A stretch of DNA of 64,000 bases from an uncultured Gammaproteobacteria bacterium (GCA_964507055.1 CAZDOJ010000001.1:657313-721312); one strand, 5' to 3'. Shown: positions 1 to 53,825, counted from the stretch's first letter. The notes: generated by a model from the sequence alone, not told the origin. Translations and numbers: made by a program.

Positions 1-887
1 GGAATTGCCAATACCGCAACTCCTAGAATCATTTTTATGAAAGCGTTCCTCAGACGTGATCGATCATGGGTGAGTTTGGAAAAAATAGGAAACATTACAT
101 AATTGAAAGCATTTCCTAATTCAACAAAAGGCATTACTGCTAAAGAATAAGCAAGTTGATAAATACCAAGTGACGATGCACCAAGCATTCTTCCAACTGC
201 AATGTTATCCATATTGGTAAATAAATAATCAAAGATTGCAGTTCCTGTAATCCATTTACCTCTGTGGAAAATTGTTGCAATATATGCCTTCTCAAAGTGG
301 AAGCTTGGACGAGGAGATACTATTATGTATGACAAAACTAATTCTACTATCACACCAGCAAGAAGACCGACTACAATTCCAATTGGATTTTGTGTAATGT
401 ACGTAACGATAATTGAAACAGTGGTATCAATTACAAGAATAATCGTTTGATACCAAAAATTCTTGGCAAAAAGTAAGTCTTTCTGCAACTTTACAACAGC
501 TGGATTTATAAATCCTCTAAGTAAAGGAACGATACTTATCCAATAAAGAAGTGTTACAGAAGCTGGTGAATGAAAGAAGTTAGCAATAAATGGAGCTGCT
601 ATTAAAAGAATAATCATTATTACGAGACCTCTTAAAATAGAAATGATCCAAGCTGAACTTACATATTTGTCAGTTTCTTTTTCTTGAACTAAAACAACAT
701 TAACACCAGTTTGGGTAATTGTCTCTAAAAGACCAAGTGCTAATAAAGCAATCGCATAGATACCAAACTGTTCTGGAGCAAGAATTCTTGCCAAAATAAT
801 AGTCTCCAGAAAACCGACTGCTTTTGTCAGAAATCGTAAAGAGCCAATAAACGAAAGACCTTTTATAACATCTTTTTTATATCCCAT
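1..887 (-). CDS. Polysaccharide flippase (Wzx/MOP-family), N-terminal ~295 aa; C-terminus lies beyond the window start
   Basis: Reverse-strand translation from the ATG at 885-887 (MGYKKDVIKGLSFIGSLRF...) gives a polytopic protein with multiple TM helices, typical of Wzx/MurJ-like MOP transporters. It is not in the ORF track because it runs off the window edge. Confidence 0.55.
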   Translation of the reverse strand, partial: MGYKKDVIKGLSFIGSLRFLTKAVGFLETIILARILAPEQFGIYAIALLALGLLETITQTGVNVVLVQEKETDKYVSSAWIISILRGLVIMIILLIAAPFIANFFHSPASVTLLYWISIVPLLRGFINPAVVKLQKDLLFAKNFWYQTIILVIDTTVSIIVTYITQNPIGIVVGLLAGVIVELVLSYIIVSPRPSFHFEKAYIATIFHRGKWITGTAIFDYLFTNMDNIAVGRMLGASSLGIYQLAYSLAVMPFVELGNAFNYVMFPIFSKLTHDRSRLRNAFIKMILGVAVLAI

Positions 888-1810
888 AAATGTAAAATCC
901 CACTTATTGTACCATTCATCACTGCAAAGTCAGCAATAAATTGTAATAGTGGTAAATAGAAAAAGGCAGATGCATCTTTAACATAACGATAATTTTTTGA
1001 AATAGCCCACACAATATAAAGCAGAAGAATAAAAGATAAGAAATAAAGAATGAGAAAAGATTTTGTAATTACAAATACAAGAAATAAACCCAAAATTAAA
1101 AGATATCGTACAAAAAGAAATAAAACTTTCGGACGAAAAATACCTGCTTCGGCATCACCATAAGCAAAACGCAGAAACATTATATATGTCTCCTTCAGCG
1201 TATTTCTTGGTATCCAATAAGCAATTGCATCTTTGACAAACACTATATTTGCACCGATCTTTTTTAACTTTTTCGCATATGCATAATCTTCATTATGGGA
1301 CAATACCTCATCAAAACCACCAACCTTTTTCCATATCGATTTTTTGAAAGCAACAGAACGAGTAGCAGGAAGAAAATTATTAGAATCTACTTTATCAGGC
1401 ATCACAAAGACATAGGGAAGCAAGCTCTTATGAAAAGTATTTTGTGTTAAACCTTTATAATAACCAGCGACAACATCAACATCTTTTTCAGTAAAAGGCT
1501 TGGTAATCAATGCAATCCAGTCTTTATCTAAAATATTGCCAGCATCCGAACAAACAATTATATCTCCAGATGCTTGCCTAATTGCCTCATTCCTTCCAAC
1601 AGATCTATTCCCTTTTTTAACAATAACTTTTACTTTCTTAACTGATTTGGGAAATTGGAATTTATTAATGAGAGAAACAGTTTGATCAACGCTCCCCCCA
1701 TCAACAATTATGATCTCATCGGGAAGTTTTGTTTGAGCTGCAAGTGATTGCAGAAAATCTAGAATAGAATTCTGCTCATTATAAATAGTAGTAATAAAAG
1801 AAATTTTCAT
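863..1810 (-). CDS. GT2 glycosyltransferase with two C-terminal TM helices (GtrB/ArnC/DPM1-like polyprenyl-phosphate sugar synthase topology)
   Basis: N-terminal IYNEQ...DEIIIVDGGSVDQT and the GT2 catalytic DAD region. The C-terminal 70 aa form two hydrophobic helices, as in polyprenyl-phosphate glycosyltransferases. Confidence 0.75.
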   Translation of the reverse strand: MKISFITTIYNEQNSILDFLQSLAAQTKLPDEIIIVDGGSVDQTVSLINKFQFPKSVKKVKVIVKKGNRSVGRNEAIRQASGDIIVCSDAGNILDKDWIALITKPFTEKDVDVVAGYYKGLTQNTFHKSLLPYVFVMPDKVDSNNFLPATRSVAFKKSIWKKVGGFDEVLSHNEDYAYAKKLKKIGANIVFVKDAIAYWIPRNTLKETYIMFLRFAYGDAEAGIFRPKVLFLFVRYLLILGLFLVFVITKSFLILYFLSFILLLYIVWAISKNYRYVKDASAFFYLPLLQFIADFAVMNGTISGILHLWDIKKML

Positions 1811-1864
1811 AAATTACATTATATATAGTATATGGTATAGTAGAGCAGATTAATTAACTTTTCT

Positions 1865-2404
1865 ATGACTAATTCTCGCACAATTTTAAGTATTTTGGAA
1901 TGGATAGGAAATGATATCATAAGTGCAATTCCTTCACATACAATAAGGAACTTCTTTTATCGAAATATTGCAGAAATCAAACTTGGAAAGGATAGCACTA
2001 TTTCTATGCATTGCAAGTTTTCGACATTTTCTGATATTACGATCAAAAACAACACTGTAATATTGCAAGGCGTTTTTCTCGATGGACGGGGTGGAATAAC
2101 TATTGGGAATAATGTAAATATTGGGAGGGATGTTTCTATCCACACTGCACAACATAACCCACAATCTCCAGACTTTGATTATGTCGAAAAATCGGTTCAG
2201 ATAAAGGATCACGTATGGATCGCAAGTAGTGTTATTATCATTCCGGGAGTAACGATCGGTGAAGGTGCAGTTCTTGCTGCTGGGGCTGTTGTGACAAAAG
2301 ATGTGGAGCCTTACACAATCGTTGGAGGAAACCCTGCAAAGTTTATAAAAAAGAGAAATAAAAAAATTGCATATAAAACAAACTGGGCTGCACTTTTCTA
2401 TTAA
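1865..2404 (+). CDS. Hexapeptide-repeat (LbH) O-acetyltransferase, WbbJ/Mac-like
   Basis: Repeated [LIV]G-x-x-x-x hexapeptides and a C-terminal [37 protein letters not shown]. It is paralogous to the genes at 53876-54490 and 61013-61540. Confidence 0.8.
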
Positions 2405-2418
2405 TGCATTAAATCAAT

Positions 2419-3492
2419 TTGATGAACAAAAAAACTTCATATAATTTTTCAGCAGATATTATAAGAGTCCTTGCTATTTTTGGCGTATTATTTATTCATA
2501 TCGTTCATCCACTCAACGGCAGGCCAGATTTATTTAGCGAGATTGTATGGTGGTTTGGAATCATTATCGATGCATTATCACGAATTGCTATTCCTTTATT
2601 TGTCCTTTTAAGTGGATATTTTCTTTTAAATAAAGACGAATCTTTCTCTCAATCATTGAAACGAACGGCTACTCGTATTTTTATTCCACTTCTTTTTTGG
2701 TTTTTGTTCTATACATGGTGGTATAGTAGACCATTATCTTTACCAAGCTTTGATAGTTCGTTGCTAGCAAACATATTTACTGTAAATGTATTTCATCTCT
2801 ATTTCCTTATCATTATGCTCGGACTTTATATAGCAGCACCGCTTTTCCGTACGTATCTTCGTACGAAAGCACAATCAGAACACAAAAAGCTTATGATTTT
2901 ATTACTTGCTGTAGGGATTCTTGAAGTTATTGGTCAATATGTCTTGCAACGATGTGCAATGGATAATATCTTTACGTACTGGATACCTTACTCAGGGCTT
3001 TTTGTAGCAGGATTCGTTCTTGGAAATAAAGCACAATCCATAAAAGCTACGAAACCTCTACTACTCCTTTATACTTTTGGACTGATAGCAACGATTGCTT
3101 TTAGTTATTTTCACTATCTTTCTCTTTTTAACGGTGGTAATTTCCTTGGCTCTGCGGGATGCATTGCCTATTATTCCGATTATTATATGAGTATTCCAGT
3201 TCTCCTGATGTCTTTGCCTGCGTTTATACTCTTACTTCGTTTTAAATATCATTTTTTAAATAAAAAGCATATTGCAGCGACTGTCCGCTCACTATCAAAG
3301 GCAAGTTTTGGTATTTACCTTAGTCATTTGTTTATCCTTAATATTATTGAACATTATCTCTTTGATTATCTTTCCCCTAACTTGTTCTATATTATTATCA
3401 AATGGCTGATAATCCTTCTTCTCTCGTACCTATTCACTGTTATATTTATGAGAATCCCATTTATAAATCGAGTATTAGGAGCCAAAGATTAA
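2419..3492 (+). CDS. Acyltransferase family 3 (OafA/OatA-like membrane O-acyltransferase)
   Basis: 357-aa polytopic membrane protein. The N-terminal motif IRVLAIFGVLFIHIVHP is typical of acyltransferase_3. Confidence 0.7.
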   Translation: MMNKKTSYNFSADIIRVLAIFGVLFIHIVHPLNGRPDLFSEIVWWFGIIIDALSRIAIPLFVLLSGYFLLNKDESFSQSLKRTATRIFIPLLFWFLFYTWWYSRPLSLPSFDSSLLANIFTVNVFHLYFLIIMLGLYIAAPLFRTYLRTKAQSEHKKLMILLLAVGILEVIGQYVLQRCAMDNIFTYWIPYSGLFVAGFVLGNKAQSIKATKPLLLLYTFGLIATIAFSYFHYLSLFNGGNFLGSAGCIAYYSDYYMSIPVLLMSLPAFILLLRFKYHFLNKKHIAATVRSLSKASFGIYLSHLFILNIIEHYLFDYLSPNLFYIIIKWLIILLLSYLFTVIFMRIPFINRVLGAKD

Positions 3493-3637
3493 CTAGCAGA
3501 TAGTATTTCATATATCTCAATTGGATAATAATATAGCAAAATATAAATTGATAAGAATTGATCTATTCAAACCACTTTTGCATCAGTTGACTTTAAATTA
3601 TGTATGTGGGATATTCTAAATAGATAAACTCTAGTCA

Positions 3638-4855
3638 ATGAAAAAAATCTTTGCATCTATTTTATTAAGTCTGTCATTTCTTTTATCGAGTGTTAGTCCC
3701 TCTTTTGCAGCAGAAAATATCCACATTGATAGTGCAGAATGGCTTAATTCACATACAATCCGTTTCCATTACTCAGACAATGATTATGCTCCAGGCGGGG
3801 TGGCTTTAATTTTTACAGCAAGTGATGGTAGTAGGACGTTACATGCAGGTGCTCAGAACTATCCCGACACTGATGTGTCAGGCTATTTTGATTTTGATGC
3901 CGGTTCTGACACAGACTCATTATATTGGGGTGCTGACTCAGGATATACAAGATATTATGCACTAACAGGCTATTCAGATGAAGAGAATATGTCTAATACA
4001 TTTCGCTTAGCAGCATACGTTCCTCCTAATATAGTAATTATAGCCTCTCCATCTGCTGGAGTAAGAACAGTCGGGTCACCATTTAGTGTGAATATTACCG
4101 TTAATAGTGAAGGAGAAGCATTTAATGCTGCAAGGGCATCAGTATCAGCTTCTTCAAATCTTACTATTAATAGTATCTCCGCTCCAACATCAAACTCATG
4201 CAACATGCAATATACGCAAACTCCAACTACGTCTAATCCATCATTCGCTGGAGCAATTTACGGTTCATCTTCTGAAAGTTGTAATGTGTACACGATGGTC
4301 GTTACACCAAATGATACAGGGACTGGAACTATCACTTTCACAAATGGTTCAGTAAAGGCATACTCAGACAATTCTGAAATAATGACTGGTGTTACGAATG
4401 CATCTTTCACATTATCTGATGGACCAACCCCAACGCCTACCCCACTTCTTGAATTTGCAGTTACAAGTCCATACGAAACATATAAAGAGAACTTTACAAT
4501 TACAGGAACCAAACTCGATACTATTACAGCAATGTTCTTAAACGGAGATGATACAGACTCTGTCTATCCGACAAGTACAACATGGGAAATCCCTGTAACA
4601 CTTGCTCTTGGTGACAATAATTACACGTTATATGGAAGTGACGGGACCAATCAAACAGCTACACAAAATGTGATTATCGACCGCCATACTCTCGGGGACA
4701 TCAACGGGGATGGCGAAATAGATCTCATCGACGCTTCCCTCTTTGCTGTCGACTGGGATAAAACGGAAGGCCTCACATACATTCTCTCTGATATGAATGA
4801 TGATGGTGTAGTAGATCTTACTGACCTTTCCATCCTCGCAAAATTGCAAGAGTAA
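3638..4855 (+). CDS. Secreted multi-domain surface protein: signal peptide, unknown N-domain, cohesin-like beta-sandwich module, PT-linker, Ig-like module, C-terminal type-I dockerin
   Basis: Signal peptide MKKIFASILLSLSFLLSSVSPSFA. Residues ~130-262 are homologous to the N-domain of the next gene. A TPTPTP linker follows. Residues ~350-405 carry two canonical dockerin Ca-binding segments, DINGDGEIDLIDASLF and DMNDDGVVDLTDLSIL. Confidence 0.6.
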   Translation: MKKIFASILLSLSFLLSSVSPSFAAENIHIDSAEWLNSHTIRFHYSDNDYAPGGVALIFTASDGSRTLHAGAQNYPDTDVSGYFDFDAGSDTDSLYWGADSGYTRYYALTGYSDEENMSNTFRLAAYVPPNIVIIASPSAGVRTVGSPFSVNITVNSEGEAFNAARASVSASSNLTINSISAPTSNSCNMQYTQTPTTSNPSFAGAIYGSSSESCNVYTMVVTPNDTGTGTITFTNGSVKAYSDNSEIMTGVTNASFTLSDGPTPTPTPLLEFAVTSPYETYKENFTITGTKLDTITAMFLNGDDTDSVYPTSTTWEIPVTLALGDNNYTLYGSDGTNQTATQNVIIDRHTLGDINGDGEIDLIDASLFAVDWDKTEGLTYILSDMNDDGVVDLTDLSILAKLQE

Positions 4856-4913
4856 AATATTGCGATGTTTTATTACTTCATGTATAAACTAATAAGTTAC
4901 TGAACAGCTTACA

Positions 4914-5825
4914 ATGTATAAATTAATATTCAATTTTTTTACTTTTTTCTCAATTTCTCTTCTGTTTGTCTCACACGTATATGCTGCTGAAACAACTATT
5001 GGAGTTTCTCCAAATTCAGGGACATTTGATAAAGCCTTTAAAGCAAATATTGTAATTGACGGAAAAGGAGATGTCTTTAATGCAGCGGAATCGAAAGTTA
5101 AAATTTCTTCAAATCTGACCGTAAAAGATATTATTTTAGGCGATTGTAATTTTTCGTATTTAAGTACTCCAACCACAGAAAATCTTTCATTTTCTGGTGT
5201 CATTCTCTCAGGATCTTCTAAAAAATGTACAGTCTATACTATGACTTTATTACCTAAAGAAAAAGGAAACGCTTCAATAAATCTTTCCGACGGTTCAGTT
5301 CGAAGATATGGCGACGCAGTAAACGTCCTTAAAGGAATGAATAATGCGTCATTTACGTTGTCAGGAACTGTCGCATCTGCACAAACAAAAGCTATCACAA
5401 CGAAAGAAACAAATGGTCTCTATACACTGACAATTAATGTAGTCGCGAAAGAGCATGAACCGCTACAAGATGCACTCGTATCCCTTACCTCGCCAGATAT
5501 TAAAAGTGCAGTCAAAATAAAAACATCCGCATCAGGCCAAGCACAATTTACAAAGCTCAAAGAAGGAGTATACGAAGCAACTGTCGATAAAGATAATAAG
5601 ATAGTCGCAAGAACAATTATTAATGTAAAAGGAAGTAATCCGAATATCTCATTTGGAATCAACTTGGAAAACCAGAAAAATAATCCTCTTTTGGGAAATA
5701 CTACTATAAATATATTTGGATTATCACCATGGCATATTGCAGCGATTTTAGGTGTAGGAATTATATTTGGAGCGGGAATAGCATTTACTACTGTTAAACT
5801 TTCTGGAAGAAAAAAGAAAGAGTAA
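4914..5825 (+). CDS. Membrane-anchored surface protein: signal peptide, cohesin-like module (paralogous to 3638-4855), CarboxypepD_reg/prealbumin-like module, C-terminal TM anchor
   Basis: Signal peptide MYKLIFNFFTFFSISLLFVSHVYA. The shared block aligns with the previous gene: SPNSGTFDKAFKANIVIDGKGDVFNAAE...NASFTL versus SPSAGVRTVGSPFSVNITVNSEGEAFNAAR...NASFTL. The C-terminal helix AAILGVGIIFGAGIAFTTV is followed by a basic tail. Confidence 0.5.
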   Translation: MYKLIFNFFTFFSISLLFVSHVYAAETTIGVSPNSGTFDKAFKANIVIDGKGDVFNAAESKVKISSNLTVKDIILGDCNFSYLSTPTTENLSFSGVILSGSSKKCTVYTMTLLPKEKGNASINLSDGSVRRYGDAVNVLKGMNNASFTLSGTVASAQTKAITTKETNGLYTLTINVVAKEHEPLQDALVSLTSPDIKSAVKIKTSASGQAQFTKLKEGVYEATVDKDNKIVARTIINVKGSNPNISFGINLENQKNNPLLGNTTINIFGLSPWHIAAILGVGIIFGAGIAFTTVKLSGRKKKE

Positions 5826-5826
5826 T

Positions 5827-6585
5827 TTACTCTTTCTCAGCTTTCGCCTGTTCATAGCGAAGTCCACCCATTTCATAAGCACTATTTGGTTTTTTTACGC
5901 CACCTTTTATAAGCGTATACAGTGTGTAATAAACATAATCCCAGGTAATCTTCCACGTCCCTTCTACTTCAAATCGACGCATTGAGAAATAGCACCCAAC
6001 TCGATAGATAAGTGTTGGAGAGACACCATGCTTGTGTGCTTTCATGATCAAATTATGATCTTCCCCAATAATAATTGATTCCTCAAAGCCTCCAATTTGA
6101 TCAAACAACTTTTTCTGAATAACAATATGCGGACCTGTTGATATAGGATATCCTACAAGCTTCATTACACGTACAAATGAGATACTGCAGAAAAAGAGCA
6201 AACGATGTAAAAGAGAAGAAGTACTTGGTTGGACAAAAGGCAGATACAAAGGTTTATTATCCTTATCTATTCTTCGGAGGATTTTTTCCATAACGTCTTT
6301 ATCAAGTCGTGTATCTGCATCCAAGAAAAAGATATATTCACTTTTGACATACTTTGCACCAACATTCCGTTGCAGAGCAGCACCTTTGGCTGAAGATTCT
6401 ACAAATTGGAGAGATAAGTTCTTATGAAATGCAGCTGCCACTTTTTTGGTATTATCTTGCGATTTTGCATCAATAACAACCACTTCAAAATTCTTCTCTG
6501 TCTGGTCTACGAGGTCTTGGAGCAAGAGAGGCAGATAGTGTTCTTCATTCAACGTCGGAATGACGATGGTGATTTTCGCACGCAT
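5827..6585 (-). CDS. GT2 glycosyltransferase
   Basis: ITIVIPTLNEEHYLPLLLQDL...VVVIDAKSQDNT...FLDADTRL (DXD region). Confidence 0.8.
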   Translation of the reverse strand: MRAKITIVIPTLNEEHYLPLLLQDLVDQTEKNFEVVVIDAKSQDNTKKVAAAFHKNLSLQFVESSAKGAALQRNVGAKYVKSEYIFFLDADTRLDKDVMEKILRRIDKDNKPLYLPFVQPSTSSLLHRLLFFCSISFVRVMKLVGYPISTGPHIVIQKKLFDQIGGFEESIIIGEDHNLIMKAHKHGVSPTLIYRVGCYFSMRRFEVEGTWKITWDYVYYTLYTLIKGGVKKPNSAYEMGGLRYEQAKAEKE

Positions 6586-6629
6586 AAAAGTATTGTAGTT
6601 TATACGTTCTCATTGTACAATAGCATAAT

Positions 6630-7415
6630 ATGGGCCAAGAAGCCTTAAAAATATCTGTCGTTATCCCCGTCTACAACGAGGAAAAATACATCGGAAAATG
6701 TTTGGAAAGTCTTATGAAGCAAACAGTACCGGCAGATGAGATTATTGTCGTAAATAATAATTCCACTGATAATTCTGCAAAAATAATTAAGCAATTCCCT
6801 ACTGTCCGAGTCATAAGAGAAAAGAAGCAAGGAATGACTCCAGCGAGAAATAGAGGCTTTAATGAAGCACAGTATGACATCATCGTCCGAACGGATGCAG
6901 ATACTATCCTCCCTCCCAATTGGATCAAGCGAATTAAAAGAAGTTTTGCTGACGAAAAATTAGTGGCACTCACTGGTCCAGGAGAATTTTATGACCTACC
7001 AAAAATTATTCATAATTCACGTTGGCAGACAAAAGATGAATGGGTTAAGCTAATCATTGGCTATAACAAACTTGTAAAACAGCTGATCAAACACGACTGT
7101 CTCTATGGACCTAACTATGCTATCCGAAGAAATGCTTGGGAACAAATTAAGAATACGGTTTGCCTTGATGACAAACAAGTGCATGAAGATTTGGATCTAG
7201 CAATTCATATTGCACCATTGGGTAAGATTAAGTTTTATAGAAATCTCATTGTTAAAACATCGGTACGACGTTGGAAGAAACCAGAAGCTTATGTAGAATA
7301 CCTCTATAGAGGCCTCAAATCTATCCAGAAGCATCAATTAAGTACAACACGTCAGAGAAGTACACAATTGGTTAAAAAGATTGTTTCAAAGGCATTTCTT
7401 CTTAACAGACTCTAA
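6630..7415 (+). CDS. GT2 glycosyltransferase
   Basis: ISVVIPVYNEEKYIGKCLESLMKQT...EIIVVNNNSTDNS...RTDADT. Confidence 0.8.
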   Translation: MGQEALKISVVIPVYNEEKYIGKCLESLMKQTVPADEIIVVNNNSTDNSAKIIKQFPTVRVIREKKQGMTPARNRGFNEAQYDIIVRTDADTILPPNWIKRIKRSFADEKLVALTGPGEFYDLPKIIHNSRWQTKDEWVKLIIGYNKLVKQLIKHDCLYGPNYAIRRNAWEQIKNTVCLDDKQVHEDLDLAIHIAPLGKIKFYRNLIVKTSVRRWKKPEAYVEYLYRGLKSIQKHQLSTTRQRSTQLVKKIVSKAFLLNRL

Positions 7416-13789: not shown

Positions 13790-14347
13790 CTATTGTGCAC
13801 ACCAGTAGCAGTTATTTGTACCACCTTGAGATTTGCATGTAGTTCCCGCAGTACCACTTTGGGTGTATCGGGTGTTTGAATCTCGTTGCTGTGACTCAGA
13901 TTTAGGTTGGAAACAAACGATTGTATCCGCAGCATTACTTGTTTGTGGATTTGGATTAGTAACAATTGCTTGATTAAGATTATTTGCATTAAGGAATGAT
14001 TGCTTGAGTTCTCCTTCGGTAATAAGTGTTTGGATACATGCAGTGAGACTACTCATAGGAACTGAAGCCAATGTCGTACCACTTGTATAACATGCAGCAC
14101 CACCGCTAGCTGTTGAATTCCATGGAAGAGCATTTTTTACTGAGAAGTATCGAACATTTGCACTTACGAACTGTGCAGCGACATTTTTAAGGTTTGTATC
14201 TTGTGCTTTGTTAAGCTGTTCAACTGGATTGATTGTAGCGAGGAGTGCGGCAGCGAGAATACCAAGGATACCGAGTACTACGAGTAACTCGATAAGGGTA
14301 AATCCTTTTTGGATCTTTTTTGTTAAGCTAGGCAGATTCTTTAACAT
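13790..14347 (-). CDS. Type IV pilin / pseudopilin with class III signal (prepilin peptidase site)
   Basis: Taking the start at MLKNLPSLTKKIQKGFTLIELLVVLGILGILAA gives G|FTLIEL, a prepilin cleavage and N-methylation motif. A C-terminal Cys pair (CKSQGGTNNCYWC) fits a disulfide loop. Confidence 0.75.
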   Translation of the reverse strand: MLKNLPSLTKKIQKGFTLIELLVVLGILGILAAALLATINPVEQLNKAQDTNLKNVAAQFVSANVRYFSVKNALPWNSTASGGAACYTSGTTLASVPMSSLTACIQTLITEGELKQSFLNANNLNQAIVTNPNPQTSNAADTIVCFQPKSESQQRDSNTRYTQSGTAGTTCKSQGGTNNCYWCAQ

Positions 14348-14432
14348 AAATTCTAATCTCAGCATAATTACATCACATGACAAACAGCGGTGTCAATAGG
14401 GAAACATTAGTATTTTTTGCTATAATTTCCTT

Positions 14433-49329: not shown

Positions 49330-50790
49330 CTACTTTTTATGCAAGTCGAAAATGGCGTACTGCTCTGTAAATGTAATTACTTTATATTCTTTTTCCCATT
49401 GCATTTTGTCTTGTTCTGACGGATTAATTAGTACTAAATAATCAGCACCTTTTTCAATAAGCTCAGGTATTGGATTTTGGAAACTTGCCCAGCCTTTCCT
49501 ATTCATTTGATATAAAAGGGATGTATCTCCATTATAATTTGCCACTATTAAAGCATCATTTGGCGTAAGCTGTTGGACCGCAGCTCCCGCAGCTAATATT
49601 GAACGATTATTAATATTGAAATATTCTTTGACAATATTCCAGCTCATATAGAAACTTCCAGCTATGATTAATACCACAAGAACTTTTCCAAATGGAAGGA
49701 ATTTAAGCTTCCATTGCATAAGATAATAACTTCCTATTGCCATAACTATAGCAACACTTGGAATAGTAGGAATTTGATAATAATCATGCTGCACATTTCC
49801 CGTCGCAATAATAGAAACAAAAAGAAGCGGACTTATGATAAAAGACACAAAAAATGGCCATTCTTTTATCGCACGTAATTTATATGCTCCAAAAGCAAGT
49901 AATGCTATACCAAAATATCCGCTTATTAATACAGTAAGCCTTTCATAGAAAATCCATCGAAAAAATGAAGGTCTAAAGCGGATGCCATTGCTGTTAAATA
50001 GCCATATATTTGCAGGAATCCCCTCGGGGAATTGTGATATCCATATCCGCCATGCTAAAAGAGGTGCAACTGCAAGAAAGGCAAAAATCCACATGTACCA
50101 TTTCAGAACTATCCTCCAACCAAAATGTTTCAATGCAATATAAACGATTGGGAGAATAAAAAATAGAGAATGCGGCTTAAGCAAAAATGCTGTAGCTGTA
50201 AATAGGAGTGCTAATATAAATTGTATTACGATTGATTTAGTTTTTGATTTCTTTCTAGAAAGTTCTTCAATCCATCTATCAAAGAAATAAATTGCTCCCA
50301 AAAAGGCCATAACCATCGTAGTGTCTGGAAGTATAGTTCGACCATAGTAAATATTAAAAGGGATAAACATATAGAAGAATGCACTCAATAGTCCAATCGT
50401 GTTATTACTGTGACGTTTAACAATTAAATAAAGGAAAAGACCTGCAGCAACTGATGCAGACATGCTCACTAGCCTACCCCATTGTTCAATGGTAAAGACA
50501 CCAAATAGCATAAATAATCCTGCCTGTAGGGCATTGTATATTGGGAATTCAACAAAGAAGTAACCATTCGGATTATCTAACCCTGATTGCACATTGGAAA
50601 TATTAACCATCTTAGGATAGAGTAAATTAATTCCTTCGACAGTGTAGTTTCTTGAGACTGAAGAAGTTTCAGACTGGCGCCAGCTATGCCAATCAGCTAT
50701 TGGATTATCAAATCCATATAACCGGACAATAAATCCTCCAAGGAGAATAAGAGCGAGAATAAGAAGGGTGTGGTTTTTTAGAAATTTCAT
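49330..50790 (-). CDS. GT-C-fold polytopic glycosyltransferase, ArnT/PMT (GT39/83)-like
   Basis: From the start MKFLKNHTLL (ATG at 50788-50790, overlapping the TGA of the upstream gene as ATGA) the protein has a first extracytoplasmic loop DWHSWRQSETSS and about 12 TM helices. The ORF-track start at 50958 lies inside the upstream gene. Confidence 0.55.
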   Translation of the reverse strand: MKFLKNHTLLILALILLGGFIVRLYGFDNPIADWHSWRQSETSSVSRNYTVEGINLLYPKMVNISNVQSGLDNPNGYFFVEFPIYNALQAGLFMLFGVFTIEQWGRLVSMSASVAAGLFLYLIVKRHSNNTIGLLSAFFYMFIPFNIYYGRTILPDTTMVMAFLGAIYFFDRWIEELSRKKSKTKSIVIQFILALLFTATAFLLKPHSLFFILPIVYIALKHFGWRIVLKWYMWIFAFLAVAPLLAWRIWISQFPEGIPANIWLFNSNGIRFRPSFFRWIFYERLTVLISGYFGIALLAFGAYKLRAIKEWPFFVSFIISPLLFVSIIATGNVQHDYYQIPTIPSVAIVMAIGSYYLMQWKLKFLPFGKVLVVLIIAGSFYMSWNIVKEYFNINNRSILAAGAAVQQLTPNDALIVANYNGDTSLLYQMNRKGWASFQNPIPELIEKGADYLVLINPSEQDKMQWEKEYKVITFTEQYAIFDLHKK

Positions 50791-53700
50791 TTTACTTCTG
50801 AAATTGTACCATTCTTGTATTGGAAGATGTACGTATTTGCCGGATTTGCTACTTTTGCAGATGTCGCCTGATCCAATGAATTTGTTTGTACAACCTTTGG
50901 TGTTTTCTCTCGATAGATGAACCACAATCCATCTTGTAAGCCAACAGGGAATAACCATACATCTTGATGTTTTGCAGGTACATTTACGAGATATAGCGTG
51001 TCCTTTGGAGTAAAGCTTGCATATCCTGTTCTAAATGTTAAGAGCATTCCTTGTGCAATCGAGCCTGATTGTGACCATTTTAACTGCTCATTTTTATTCT
51101 GATTACTAGCGAGGAGAGCGACAATAGCAAAGAGAATAAGAATAACACTTACAAATAATGTCTTTTGTTTAATAATCTGCTTAAGGAATGCATAGACAAT
51201 AATAACAAACGACAAGCATAAGCCGAATGAGCCTAGATACATATATCGTGCAGAGATATTCCCCAAAGGCAAGAATGGAAGAAGTGAAATAAATGCAAAG
51301 ATAATACCAAAAAGTATTAATTGGGCATTAGTATGCGTTATGAGTTTTGTTAACTGCTTTTTAGCTTTATAAAAGTAATACGCTCCAGCACCTAGGATAA
51401 GTAGACTTACGCCACTAAGAACAAGCCATTGTGATCGCAAATTACTTCGTAATCCGTCATACGCAGGAAGGAATGAAGCCCCGCCAAAGAACAATCCCAA
51501 GTATCCTAAAAAATTCCCTATGACATTAGGAACTATTTTGGCAAGATTATAGCTATAATCGCCCCCACCTGAAAATGCTCCAGATACGGATCTCATAACG
51601 AAGTACAACACAACCAGTAGAACAAAAGGTAGATATGTCATAAGCAATTTTGCAGAACGCTTTGGTTTATAAATAAGTACATCCATTGCAATAAATAGTA
51701 ATGGGATAATTACTGAGATTTCATATGAGACAAACGCCAAGGCACTTAATATTACTGCACCTACATAAGCCACAGTCATATGTTTTGTTCTGAAATAGTG
51801 ATAGCAAAGCATTGCATATAAAATAAACATTGATGCTAAACCAATTGAAAGGGTTGAGAACCAGAAGAGATTTTCTGTATGAGCAGGAAGCAACGCAAAT
51901 AATACTGCAGTAAGGAACCCAACTAACCGTGATTTCGTTAAACGACTACCTAAAAGATATACGGCCACTGTTGATAAGAAATGAAGTAGCAGGATAAAAA
52001 GATGGTATCCTTCTGGATTGAAGGAGAATAACATATACAAGAAATAGACAACTACCTTATCCAATGGACGATAGAAGAAGTCTTGTGCATTCACAAAGTA
52101 CATAGGTAGATCTGTTGGCATTGCGGTTGCAGCCCATCGCAACCAGGTAAAATCATCAGCAACAAAGAAGTTCTTAATCGAAGCTGCATAACCAACTAAA
52201 ATTATAATTAATAAATAAAGAAGAAGCATAATTGGGGCCGTGAAGAAGCCCTTGAGTGATTGCTTGTAATCTATTGGCTTTTTTTGATAAAGTTTTGCAG
52301 CACCGACTCCAATACCCATAAGTATCCAGAACGGTTCCGCTACTTTAGAAGCTTCAAATACATCAATTAATACAGCATTTACTAATAGACCAATTGTTCC
52401 ACCAGCCAAACCAAATAATAAAGCTCTGACAATCGGATCTTTCGTGTCTTTAACACTATGTTTCATGAAAATACCTAGAATCACAAAAATGAATAAGAAA
52501 GTTAGCAATCCTACTAATCCCGTTTCACCTAAAGCTCGTAGGTAATCATTATCTGTCGCAAGCGTCAAAGAAGAGTAACCTGTGCCAAAGATAGGACTAA
52601 AAAGGAACGCATTCCAATTTCTTGGCCATTCTGCTTGAAAACGAGTAGTAAACGAAATATCTAACGCATATGCTTTTTTAATGAGGAAACTTCCTGAAAC
52701 AGAAGAAATTGCTATGTCCCCATTTTGGATTGATTGCAATTGTTCTTGTGTTAAGACAGTGGTGTATCCACTCTGAGATCCAGTTTTATCAGATCCAACA
52801 GTAAAATCACTTGCAGGCGGAACTTCGGCATTCTTTTGTTCCTCAGCCTTTTTGGCATCTGCAATTATTTTTTGAAGATCTGCAGGTAATGCATTTTCAC
52901 TTGAAACCACTTGAACTTCCTGGATGGTATTTGAGAATCGCTGAATCGTTGCATTACCAAATAGCATCATTACACCAACACTTACAACCATTATCGGAAT
53001 AATCCATCGCTTCTTTTGCCAAAGAATAAGCATACCAACAACACCGATAACATATGCCCCAAATGATGTACGCGATGAAGTAAAATTGAGAACTTCCAAT
53101 GCAAATAAAGCAAGGATTGCGATAAGTATTTTCAATGACCATCGCTTTACTGCAAATACTAAAGCAATAAGGACAGGAATAACCATTACCATATATGCCG
53201 ATAGGTCATAATGACCACCAAATGTTGAACTTACTCTGGATAATTCGTTTAGGCAAAGGGGTGTACCTTTTGCGAATTCTTCATTTCCAGTGAGAAAGGC
53301 TGGGAAGCAAAATGGATAGGTTTGGAAAAAGTCAGGAAAAATCTTCCAAAGTATTGTATAAAAACGCTGGCCAAAACCATAAAAAACGATACCTAAAATA
53401 GTTATACAAAGTGTTATAAGGTAGAAATAAACATCTTTGACATTTCTCACCGATGAGAAGGCGATGAAAAAGAGAATCATATATTCTATACGTCGGAAGT
53501 ACTGGAGCCAAGCAACACTCGGGAAGAAATTAGCGAGCGTAGGAGCAATAAAGGTAAGACAATAAAGGAGTGAAGCAAGTCCAGCAACCCAATAGAGAAT
53601 GAGTGCATAGCCTTCAGGTCTTGGTAGTGAGACTTTTCTCCGGACAAGCTGTATAAGCCAAATCAAAGCTAAAGCTGCAATAACAAAGTCTTCTAAACGA

Positions 53701-53825
53701 ATGTATACCCATGTATTATCGATATTAATACTTGGAAGCTTAGGATAAAGTGCAGTAAAAAGAATCGCAAAAGCGACTCCAAAACGTAGAATATTATTAT
53801 CAATAAGCTGCAATAACTTCTTCAT
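50787..53825 (-). CDS. Fusion membrane protein: N-terminal O-antigen-ligase/PglL-like Wzy_C domain + C-terminal GT-C-like (PMT/ArnT-like) polytopic domain
   Basis: 1012 aa. The N-half has a Wzy_C core ...SSRTSFGAYVIGVVG..., a large extracytoplasmic loop and GTGYSS...TDNDYLRALGETGLVGLL (compare WaaL HNxYLqxLaETGiiG). The C-half has about 12 further TM helices and a GT-C-like loop. Confidence 0.5.
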   Translation of the reverse strand: MKKLLQLIDNNILRFGVAFAILFTALYPKLPSINIDNTWVYIRLEDFVIAALALIWLIQLVRRKVSLPRPEGYALILYWVAGLASLLYCLTFIAPTLANFFPSVAWLQYFRRIEYMILFFIAFSSVRNVKDVYFYLITLCITILGIVFYGFGQRFYTILWKIFPDFFQTYPFCFPAFLTGNEEFAKGTPLCLNELSRVSSTFGGHYDLSAYMVMVIPVLIALVFAVKRWSLKILIAILALFALEVLNFTSSRTSFGAYVIGVVGMLILWQKKRWIIPIMVVSVGVMMLFGNATIQRFSNTIQEVQVVSSENALPADLQKIIADAKKAEEQKNAEVPPASDFTVGSDKTGSQSGYTTVLTQEQLQSIQNGDIAISSVSGSFLIKKAYALDISFTTRFQAEWPRNWNAFLFSPIFGTGYSSLTLATDNDYLRALGETGLVGLLTFLFIFVILGIFMKHSVKDTKDPIVRALLFGLAGGTIGLLVNAVLIDVFEASKVAEPFWILMGIGVGAAKLYQKKPIDYKQSLKGFFTAPIMLLLYLLIIILVGYAASIKNFFVADDFTWLRWAATAMPTDLPMYFVNAQDFFYRPLDKVVVYFLYMLFSFNPEGYHLFILLLHFLSTVAVYLLGSRLTKSRLVGFLTAVLFALLPAHTENLFWFSTLSIGLASMFILYAMLCYHYFRTKHMTVAYVGAVILSALAFVSYEISVIIPLLFIAMDVLIYKPKRSAKLLMTYLPFVLLVVLYFVMRSVSGAFSGGGDYSYNLAKIVPNVIGNFLGYLGLFFGGASFLPAYDGLRSNLRSQWLVLSGVSLLILGAGAYYFYKAKKQLTKLITHTNAQLILFGIIFAFISLLPFLPLGNISARYMYLGSFGLCLSFVIIVYAFLKQIIKQKTLFVSVILILFAIVALLASNQNKNEQLKWSQSGSIAQGMLLTFRTGYASFTPKDTLYLVNVPAKHQDVWLFPVGLQDGLWFIYREKTPKVVQTNSLDQATSAKVANPANTYIFQYKNGTISEVK

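Follow-up and report, generated by a model that had tools for sequence, protein, structure and literature searches.

A cohesin-dockerin gene pair likely to form a non-cellulosomal surface-display cassette in a probable Microgenomates-like bacterium

Cohesins and dockerins make up the best-understood high-affinity protein connectors of bacteria, and have been studied mostly in cellulolytic Firmicutes. In Ruminococcus bromii, Amy4 (GH13-cohesin-dockerin) binds both the sortase-anchored single-cohesin protein Sca2 and its own cohesin, suggesting multimerisation (PMC4611034), and in Cellulosilyticum lentocellum the adjacent genes for ClcC and ClcD, with a single cohesin and a single dockerin, give rise to a heterodimer (PMC13487519). 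Outside cellulosomes, cohesins and dockerins have been recorded from every domain of life (Peer et al. 2009, as cited in PMC10066038). Here, we describe two neighbouring genes (hereafter referred to as A and B) in a stretch of 64,000 nucleotides assigned to an uncultured Gammaproteobacteria bacterium (GCA_964507055.1, CAZDOJ010000001.1:657313-721312; hereafter referred to as the window). An original prediction, made from the nucleotide sequence, had proposed that A and B encode secreted proteins sharing a cohesin-like module, A with a dockerin and B with a membrane anchor. Our analysis leads us to consider, with moderate confidence, that the pair is a two-gene, non-cellulosomal cohesin-dockerin cassette for surface display.

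The two open reading frames (ORFs) lie on the same strand, 58 bp apart, and each begins with a Sec-type signal peptide, as expected for the two adjacent secreted proteins that had been predicted (Table 1). The C-terminal region of A scored above the curated cutoff of Pfam Dockerin_1 (PF00404; 24.0 bits, cutoff 22.9), with residues 352-402 aligned to profile positions 1-54 of 57. Both of the Ca-binding loops quoted in the original prediction, DINGDGEIDLID and DMNDDGVVDLTD, were found; they are 31 residues apart, fit the tandem dockerin pattern (D1, N/D3, D5, D9, D12 plus a helix) and are the sole motifs of this kind across the six frames of the window. The family dockerin profile matched solved dockerins over their full length (2y3n_B, E = 1.9e-11; CelS, E = 1.7e-7). 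Judging from these profile and motif matches, the dockerin of A is genuine. It had been called a canonical type-I dockerin; the dockerin assignment stands, whereas "type I" is here a Pfam family name only and is unproven as a type, because its closest match among solved dockerins, 2y3n_B, belongs to an entry whose title describes a type II complex.

The module shared by the two proteins was aligned by BLASTP with 43% identity (A residues 136-260, B residues 31-150; E = 2e-29), far beyond chance, and the borders set by the family hidden Markov model (HMM) lie close to those first suggested (4025-4424 and ~4990-5380). An AlphaFold2 model of the B module, based on a 60-sequence alignment, was of very high predicted quality (predicted local distance difference test, pLDDT, 97.1; predicted template modelling score, pTM, 0.89) and all-beta, with nine main strands and no helices, corresponding to the nine-stranded flattened beta-sandwich (jelly-roll) fold of cohesins. 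Cohesins of types I, II and III accounted for 49 of the top 50 Foldseek matches in the PDB, the best being the non-cellulosomal Archaeoglobus fulgidus cohesin 2xdh (E = 3.3e-9, TM score 0.71), and the model resembled type I, II, III and non-cellulosomal cohesins about equally well. An unrelated immunoglobulin or fibronectin fold, which the original prediction had named as the outcome that would speak against its cohesin-like call, was not borne out. In a search of all PDB sequences with a profile of the 60 sequences, three Ruminococcus flavefaciens ScaB cohesins came top (E = 1e-3 to 1e-2), in matches spanning the N-terminal 55 residues only. A tight 10-sequence profile, with the two most divergent members removed, was aligned by hhalign with the Patescibacteria protein P0155 (probability 91%, E = 1e-6, 105 columns), which itself exceeds the Pfam Cohesin threshold (31.3 bits, threshold 24.1). 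We conclude from the predicted structure, for which the fold evidence is strong, that both modules are cohesin folds. They could instead be adhesin, glycan-binding or structural beta-sandwiches, with the dockerin binding a cell-wall polymer or a host-cell ligand. We consider this quite improbable, given that cohesins rank above every other fold in two independent methods, that a profile link leads to a Pfam-validated cohesin and that the clade is strictly linked to a highly conserved dockerin, both within a single protein and in the adjacent gene.

An exhaustive HMMER search with the family yielded 472 cluster representatives (50% clustering) at E ≤ 1e-3, of which 96 were found at E ≤ 1e-30. 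They fall into two classes: long proteins with a C-terminal dockerin and no anchor (A-type), and proteins of about 300 amino acids with a C-terminal transmembrane (TM) helix and no dockerin (B-type). Dockerin_1 was matched in 40 of 45 long A-type relatives, and nearly every dockerin-bearing member also has the cohesin. Close members are named "hypothetical protein" in their sources, with no Pfam domain recorded for the cohesin; some Patescibacteria proteins already carry cohesin-domain names. Annotation of genome and metagenome loci with the family HMMs placed a cohesin-dockerin gene directly before a cohesin-TM gene on the same strand in at least 21 loci (L005-L007, L012-L018, L020, L021, L024, L025, L028-L030, L038 and L040-L042), the distance between the two genes ranging from -23 to +82 bp. 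A genome scan with the tight alignment gave four loci, the larger numbers coming from the metagenome scan; a word-indexed homolog search was insensitive (two matches with the module alone, six with the 60-sequence profile, and fragments of 58-105 amino acids only with the dockerin profile). The few exceptions to the cassette are single-cohesin proteins in L008 and L032-L035. The genes flanking the cassette vary from locus to locus (IleRS, NUDIX, methyltransferases, transposase, MBOAT, helicase, UvrA and others), and only the pair is kept.

A few relatives have two cohesins. Such A-type proteins are encoded in L005 (5818-7371) and L007 (4374-5936), and include P0076 and P0103. Their second cohesin (…INGMETQITYPSNLLDLVSV…) is far closer in sequence to classical cohesins, and is a possible evolutionary bridge to the cohesins recognised by Pfam.

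The A- and B-cohesins have in common an FNAAxA motif in predicted beta3, PSFxG in predicted beta6 and a Cys pair (module positions 55 and 82) conserved at 98-100% in both clades, which suggests a putative disulfide. Such a pair is not known to be widespread among classical cohesins. Each clade also has conserved positions of its own. Identity between A- and B-cohesins is 40%, both within and between genomes; the two are old paralogous clades that have been maintained separately. Mean pairwise identity, calculated for 16 pairs, was highest for the dockerin (64%), followed by the A-cohesin (53%), the B-cohesin (48%), the pre-dockerin module (40%) and the stalk of B (27%); with the dockerin and cohesins at the top, the presumed binding modules are the most constrained parts.

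Protein A has a variable payload position at its N-terminus. No family match was obtained for this domain of A in a Pfam search, and the search of both proteins gave no catalytic or carbohydrate-binding module (CBM) family. In relatives, the payload region ranges from 2 to 452 amino acids across loci, and may hold GH16, GH44, LCAT-like lipase/esterase, beta-helix, Laminin_G_3, Kelch or RCC1 domains. The module of about 80 amino acids preceding the dockerin is kept in about 40 of the 45 A-type members; a profile search against the PDB gave only weak, partial CBM-like matches for it (best E = 2e-3). The presence of GH16 or GH44 upstream from the same cohesin-dockerin tail in some long, distant family members, together with Pro/Thr (PT) linkers of the kind typical of cellulosomal proteins, might suggest a genuine minimal cellulosome for the breakdown of plant or algal polysaccharides. 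This is very improbable: A in the window lacks a catalytic or CBM domain, the family HMMs detect exactly two cohesin modules (one per protein) and one dockerin in the 64 kb, with no multi-cohesin scaffoldin, the payloads of the family are mixed and include lipase/esterase, Kelch, RCC1, beta-helix and lectin-like domains, and the remaining genes of the window have housekeeping and envelope functions. Identification as a cellulosome was rejected, the window containing neither a multi-cohesin scaffoldin nor a dockerin-bearing GH or CBM protein.

In B, the C-terminal TM anchor of the original prediction was recovered as a hydrophobic helix followed by KLSGRKKKE. A helix at residues 272-298 was also present in a single-sequence AlphaFold2 model of full-length B, in which pLDDT was only 38. 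Throughout the family, B-type C-termini consist of a TM helix and a basic cluster, and no sorting motif is conserved ahead of them; read from sequence, B is held by a simple type-I membrane anchor and lacks a sortase-like signal. Between cohesin and helix, a stalk of the CarboxypepD_reg/prealbumin-like family was found in 32 of 51 B-type relatives (E ≤ 1e-3), and at a score below the cutoff in B itself.

The surface-display cassette that we favour would operate as follows. B would be exported and its signal peptide removed; its C-terminal helix would keep it in the cytoplasmic membrane, the basic tail lying on the inner side, and the prealbumin-like stalk would hold its single cohesin away from the membrane. 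A would be secreted, and its C-terminal, presumably Ca2+-dependent dockerin, with the small module fused to it, would plug into the B cohesin, tethering A and its variable payload to the cell surface. The cohesin of the tethered A would then offer a further socket, open either to a second A, whose dockerin would extend a head-to-tail chain, or, in an adaptor role, to the dockerin of another secreted protein. We infer both the binding of the A dockerin to the B cohesin and the partner of the A cohesin. For the latter, self-chaining is favoured because cohesin and dockerin are near-universally coupled in one polypeptide, and an adaptor role is kept open because of the clade-specific cohesin positions and of dockerin-only neighbours in L005 and L029. 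The conservation of the gene pair and the presence of the topology signals support the original proposal of an anchored cohesin partner and a soluble dockerin partner forming a surface scaffold. The experimentally studied R. bromii and C. lentocellum pairs are precedents that favour such an arrangement.

The dockerin-only neighbours are secreted proteins encoded 1-3 kb from the cassette (L005 8934-9815, minus strand; L029 786-1889, plus strand), with PT-rich linkers, beta-sandwich-like payloads and a dockerin sequence unlike that of the A-type. One of the two cohesins may have them as its clients.

Self-assembly might come first, with the A dockerin binding mainly the A cohesin, in trans (non-covalent head-to-tail chains) or in cis (an intramolecular clasp), and the B cohesin mainly capturing other dockerin proteins or only capping or anchoring the chain. 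The coupling of cohesin and dockerin in nearly every dockerin-bearing member is consistent with this, as are the binding of the R. bromii Amy4 cohesin to its own dockerin (PMC4611034) and the citation of 2xdh, the top fold match, among the systems with such multimerising pairs (PMC4611034); the DLxDxS(I/L)(L/F)A pattern carried by both dockerin halves is compatible with two binding modes. Self-assembly nevertheless leaves unexplained the maintenance of a TM-anchored cohesin gene directly downstream in the cassette loci, and we consider it rather unlikely as the primary function, although it and the display cassette are not mutually exclusive. In a broader interpretation, which is tentative and to which we give a modest chance, the pair would represent a lineage-wide, Microgenomates-type display system with B as the base and A subunits, each with one socket and one plug, daisy-chained into non-covalent filaments or short stacks. 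Swappable payloads, among them hydrolases, lipases and domains of lectin-like or propeller type, would thereby be presented to a host cell or substrate. If true, this would be a cohesin-dockerin polymer for episymbiotic attachment and feeding, not for cellulose breakdown.

Several points weigh against the display cassette as proposed. Of the checks put forward for the shared module, structure prediction gave a cohesin fold, whereas the HMM search did not identify it: Pfam Cohesin (PF00963) had no match at E ≤ 1 in A or B. The tight profile matched no solved cohesin, and the sequence link to ScaB is treated as weak for this reason. The cohesin call is mainly fold-based, since neither Pfam nor the tight profile finds a cohesin by sequence. 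Among the family modules, Pfam Cohesin gave weak matches in 4 of 60 (best E = 5.8e-4), sub-threshold matches to BatD being commoner, and there was no match at E ≤ 1e-3 among 96 full-length relatives (51 B-type and 45 A-type). In established cohesin folds, beta3 lies next to beta6 in the dockerin-binding 8-3-6-5 sheet, and it is from this strand order in the predicted model that we infer the position of the conserved residues on the dockerin-binding face. Finally, the 40% identity of the A- and B-cohesins, together with their clade-specific positions, indicates that the two may differ in specificity.

Table 1. Positions of genes A and B, their parts and nearby signals, counted from the first nucleotide of the window.
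Feature	Position	Strand	Description
Promoter-like site	3587-3615	+	TTGACT-17-GATATT with TG, ~23 bp 5' of gene A; consensus match only
Gene A	3638-4855	+	405 aa: signal peptide, N-terminal domain, cohesin, PT linker, small conserved module, dockerin
Signal peptide of A	3638-3709	+	aa 1-24, Sec-type, cleavage after SFA (between …SPSFA and AE); read from translation, no predictor
N-terminal domain of A	3710-4024	+	aa 25-~129, ~105 aa; variable payload position
Cohesin-fold module of A (A-clade)	4028-4420	+	family HMM E 6.5e-54; fold by homology to modelled B module
Pro/Thr linker of A	4424-4444	+	PTPTPTP, read from sequence; PTPTPT in A-type consensus
Conserved module of A	4445-4681	+	~80 aa, joined directly to dockerin without linker; X-module-like position
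Dockerin of A	4682-4852	+	Pfam Dockerin_1; family HMM E 3e-34
Ca-binding loop 1	4697-4732	+	DINGDGEIDLID; 12 residues, EF-hand-like
Ca-binding loop 2	4790-4825	+	DMNDDGVVDLTD; 12 residues, EF-hand-like
Gene B	4914-5825	+	303 aa, predicted type-I membrane protein: signal peptide, cohesin, prealbumin-like stalk, TM helix, basic tail
Signal peptide of B	4914-4985	+	aa 1-24, Sec-type, cleavage after VYA (between …SHVYA and AE); predicted helix
Cohesin-fold module of B (B-clade)	4983-5369	+	family HMM; sequence used for structure model
Prealbumin/CarboxypepD_reg-like stalk domain of B	5427-5600	+	27.6 bits, below 32.3 cutoff
C-terminal TM helix and basic tail of B	5736-5822	+	hydrophobic helix aa ~275-294; cytoplasmic tail KLSGRKKKE
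Cys pair of A cohesin	4199-4201, 4280-4282		aa 188, 215 (module 55, 82)
Cys pair of B cohesin	5145-5147, 5226-5228		aa 78, 105 (module 55, 82)
Terminator-like hairpin	5814-5838	no strand	end of gene B, common to convergent GT2 gene

The number of promoter-like sites in the region was not above shuffle expectation, and no terminator-like site was found in the gap between A and B. Scans of the window for Rfam families and tRNAs gave no match. Elsewhere, the window carries ordinary chromosomal genes with housekeeping and envelope functions, including those for IleRS, RodA, PBP2, FtsA, L21, L27, ParB and signal peptidase I, PMT_2 and Wzy_C glycosyltransferases and a pilin-like gene. The last of these (13790-14383, minus strand), which adjoins IleRS, encodes a type IV pilin-like protein of 197 amino acids that has a methylation motif at its N-terminus (PF07963) and is another surface-appendage component. 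The Wzy_C gene (50787-53825, minus strand) encodes an O-antigen ligase-like membrane protein of 1012 amino acids and the PMT_2 gene (49330-50958, minus strand) a glycosyltransferase of 542 amino acids; their longest ORFs overlap by ~170 nt, an artefact that probably arose from the start codons chosen when the ORFs were listed mechanically.

On either side of the pair (863-3492 and 5827-7415) lies a cell-envelope glycan cluster with three GT2 glycosyltransferases, a hexapeptide acetyltransferase and Acyl_transf_3; further upstream, the genes seen in L009 (1-9855) comprise a Polysacc_synt flippase, two NTP-transferases, a HAD hydrolase, WavE and GDPD. This glycan-biosynthesis neighbourhood was rejected as part of the system, because the flanks differ in every other locus. 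Glycosylation of A is conceivable, given its PT linker.

Relatives were found in records whose titles name Candidatus Microgenomates, Candidatus Levyibacteriota and the Patescibacteria group. The GC content of the window is low (31-43%), and the same sequence recurs across one metagenome run set (SRR142713xx). On the basis of the records of relatives and the low GC content, the host is probably an ultra-small bacterium resembling the candidate phyla radiation (CPR)/Microgenomates. Two of the metagenome-assembled genome records with the cassette, CAYOTA010000013.1 (L005) and CAZKYX010000003.1 (L007), are titled "uncultured Gammaproteobacteria bacterium"; they are probably mislabelled third-party assemblies.

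A literature search, which was not exhaustive, for cohesins or dockerins together with CPR, Microgenomates or Patescibacteria retrieved no description of the cassette. Three aspects are new: a large cohesin clade undetected by Pfam, with its own motifs and Cys pair; a conserved pair of genes forming a cassette whose base is TM-anchored; and the rule that the dockerin-bearing subunit also has a cohesin. In ultra-small bacteria, of whose surface biology and attachment to hosts little is understood, the divergent clade would provide a conserved, minimal operon of socket plus plug. If the binding is as proposed, it would account for the tethering of diverse secreted enzymes and binding domains to the surface, bring many unannotated proteins, corresponding to the representatives recovered here, into the cohesin superfamily, and give protein engineers a compact cohesin/dockerin pair that may be stabilised by a disulfide.

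The A/B pair has the architecture of R. bromii Amy4 (Sca1)/Sca2 and follows the same logic, that of a payload-cohesin-dockerin protein with an anchored single-cohesin partner. The two systems differ in their anchors (a TM helix and basic tail here, a sortase signal in R. bromii) and in their payloads (a small domain without a family match in the window, a GH13 amylase in Amy4); here, moreover, the genes form an adjacent conserved cassette, the cohesin is missed by Pfam and the probable host is a CPR bacterium, not a Firmicute. C. lentocellum ClcC/ClcD is similar in having adjacent cohesin and dockerin genes, but that pair enhances cellulase activity, whereas A and B have no enzyme domain, both contain a cohesin and one is membrane-anchored. 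The cell-bound cohesin, the dockerin following a small fused module and the PT-rich linkers are reminiscent of the X-dockerin interactions of cellulosomal anchoring scaffoldins (type II in Clostridium thermocellum, type III with ScaE in R. flavefaciens); unlike these, the pair lacks anchors of the surface-layer homology (SLH) or sortase kind as well as a multi-cohesin scaffoldin. A helix in the cohesin is a type II feature, and the B-module model differs from that type in having none. Finally, by comparison with the A. fulgidus cohesin 2xdh, to which sequence identity is 14%, the family described here is distinguished by its near-invariant Cys pair and its FNAA and PSFxG motifs, and by its occurrence in a bacterial lineage with a dedicated TM-anchored partner gene.
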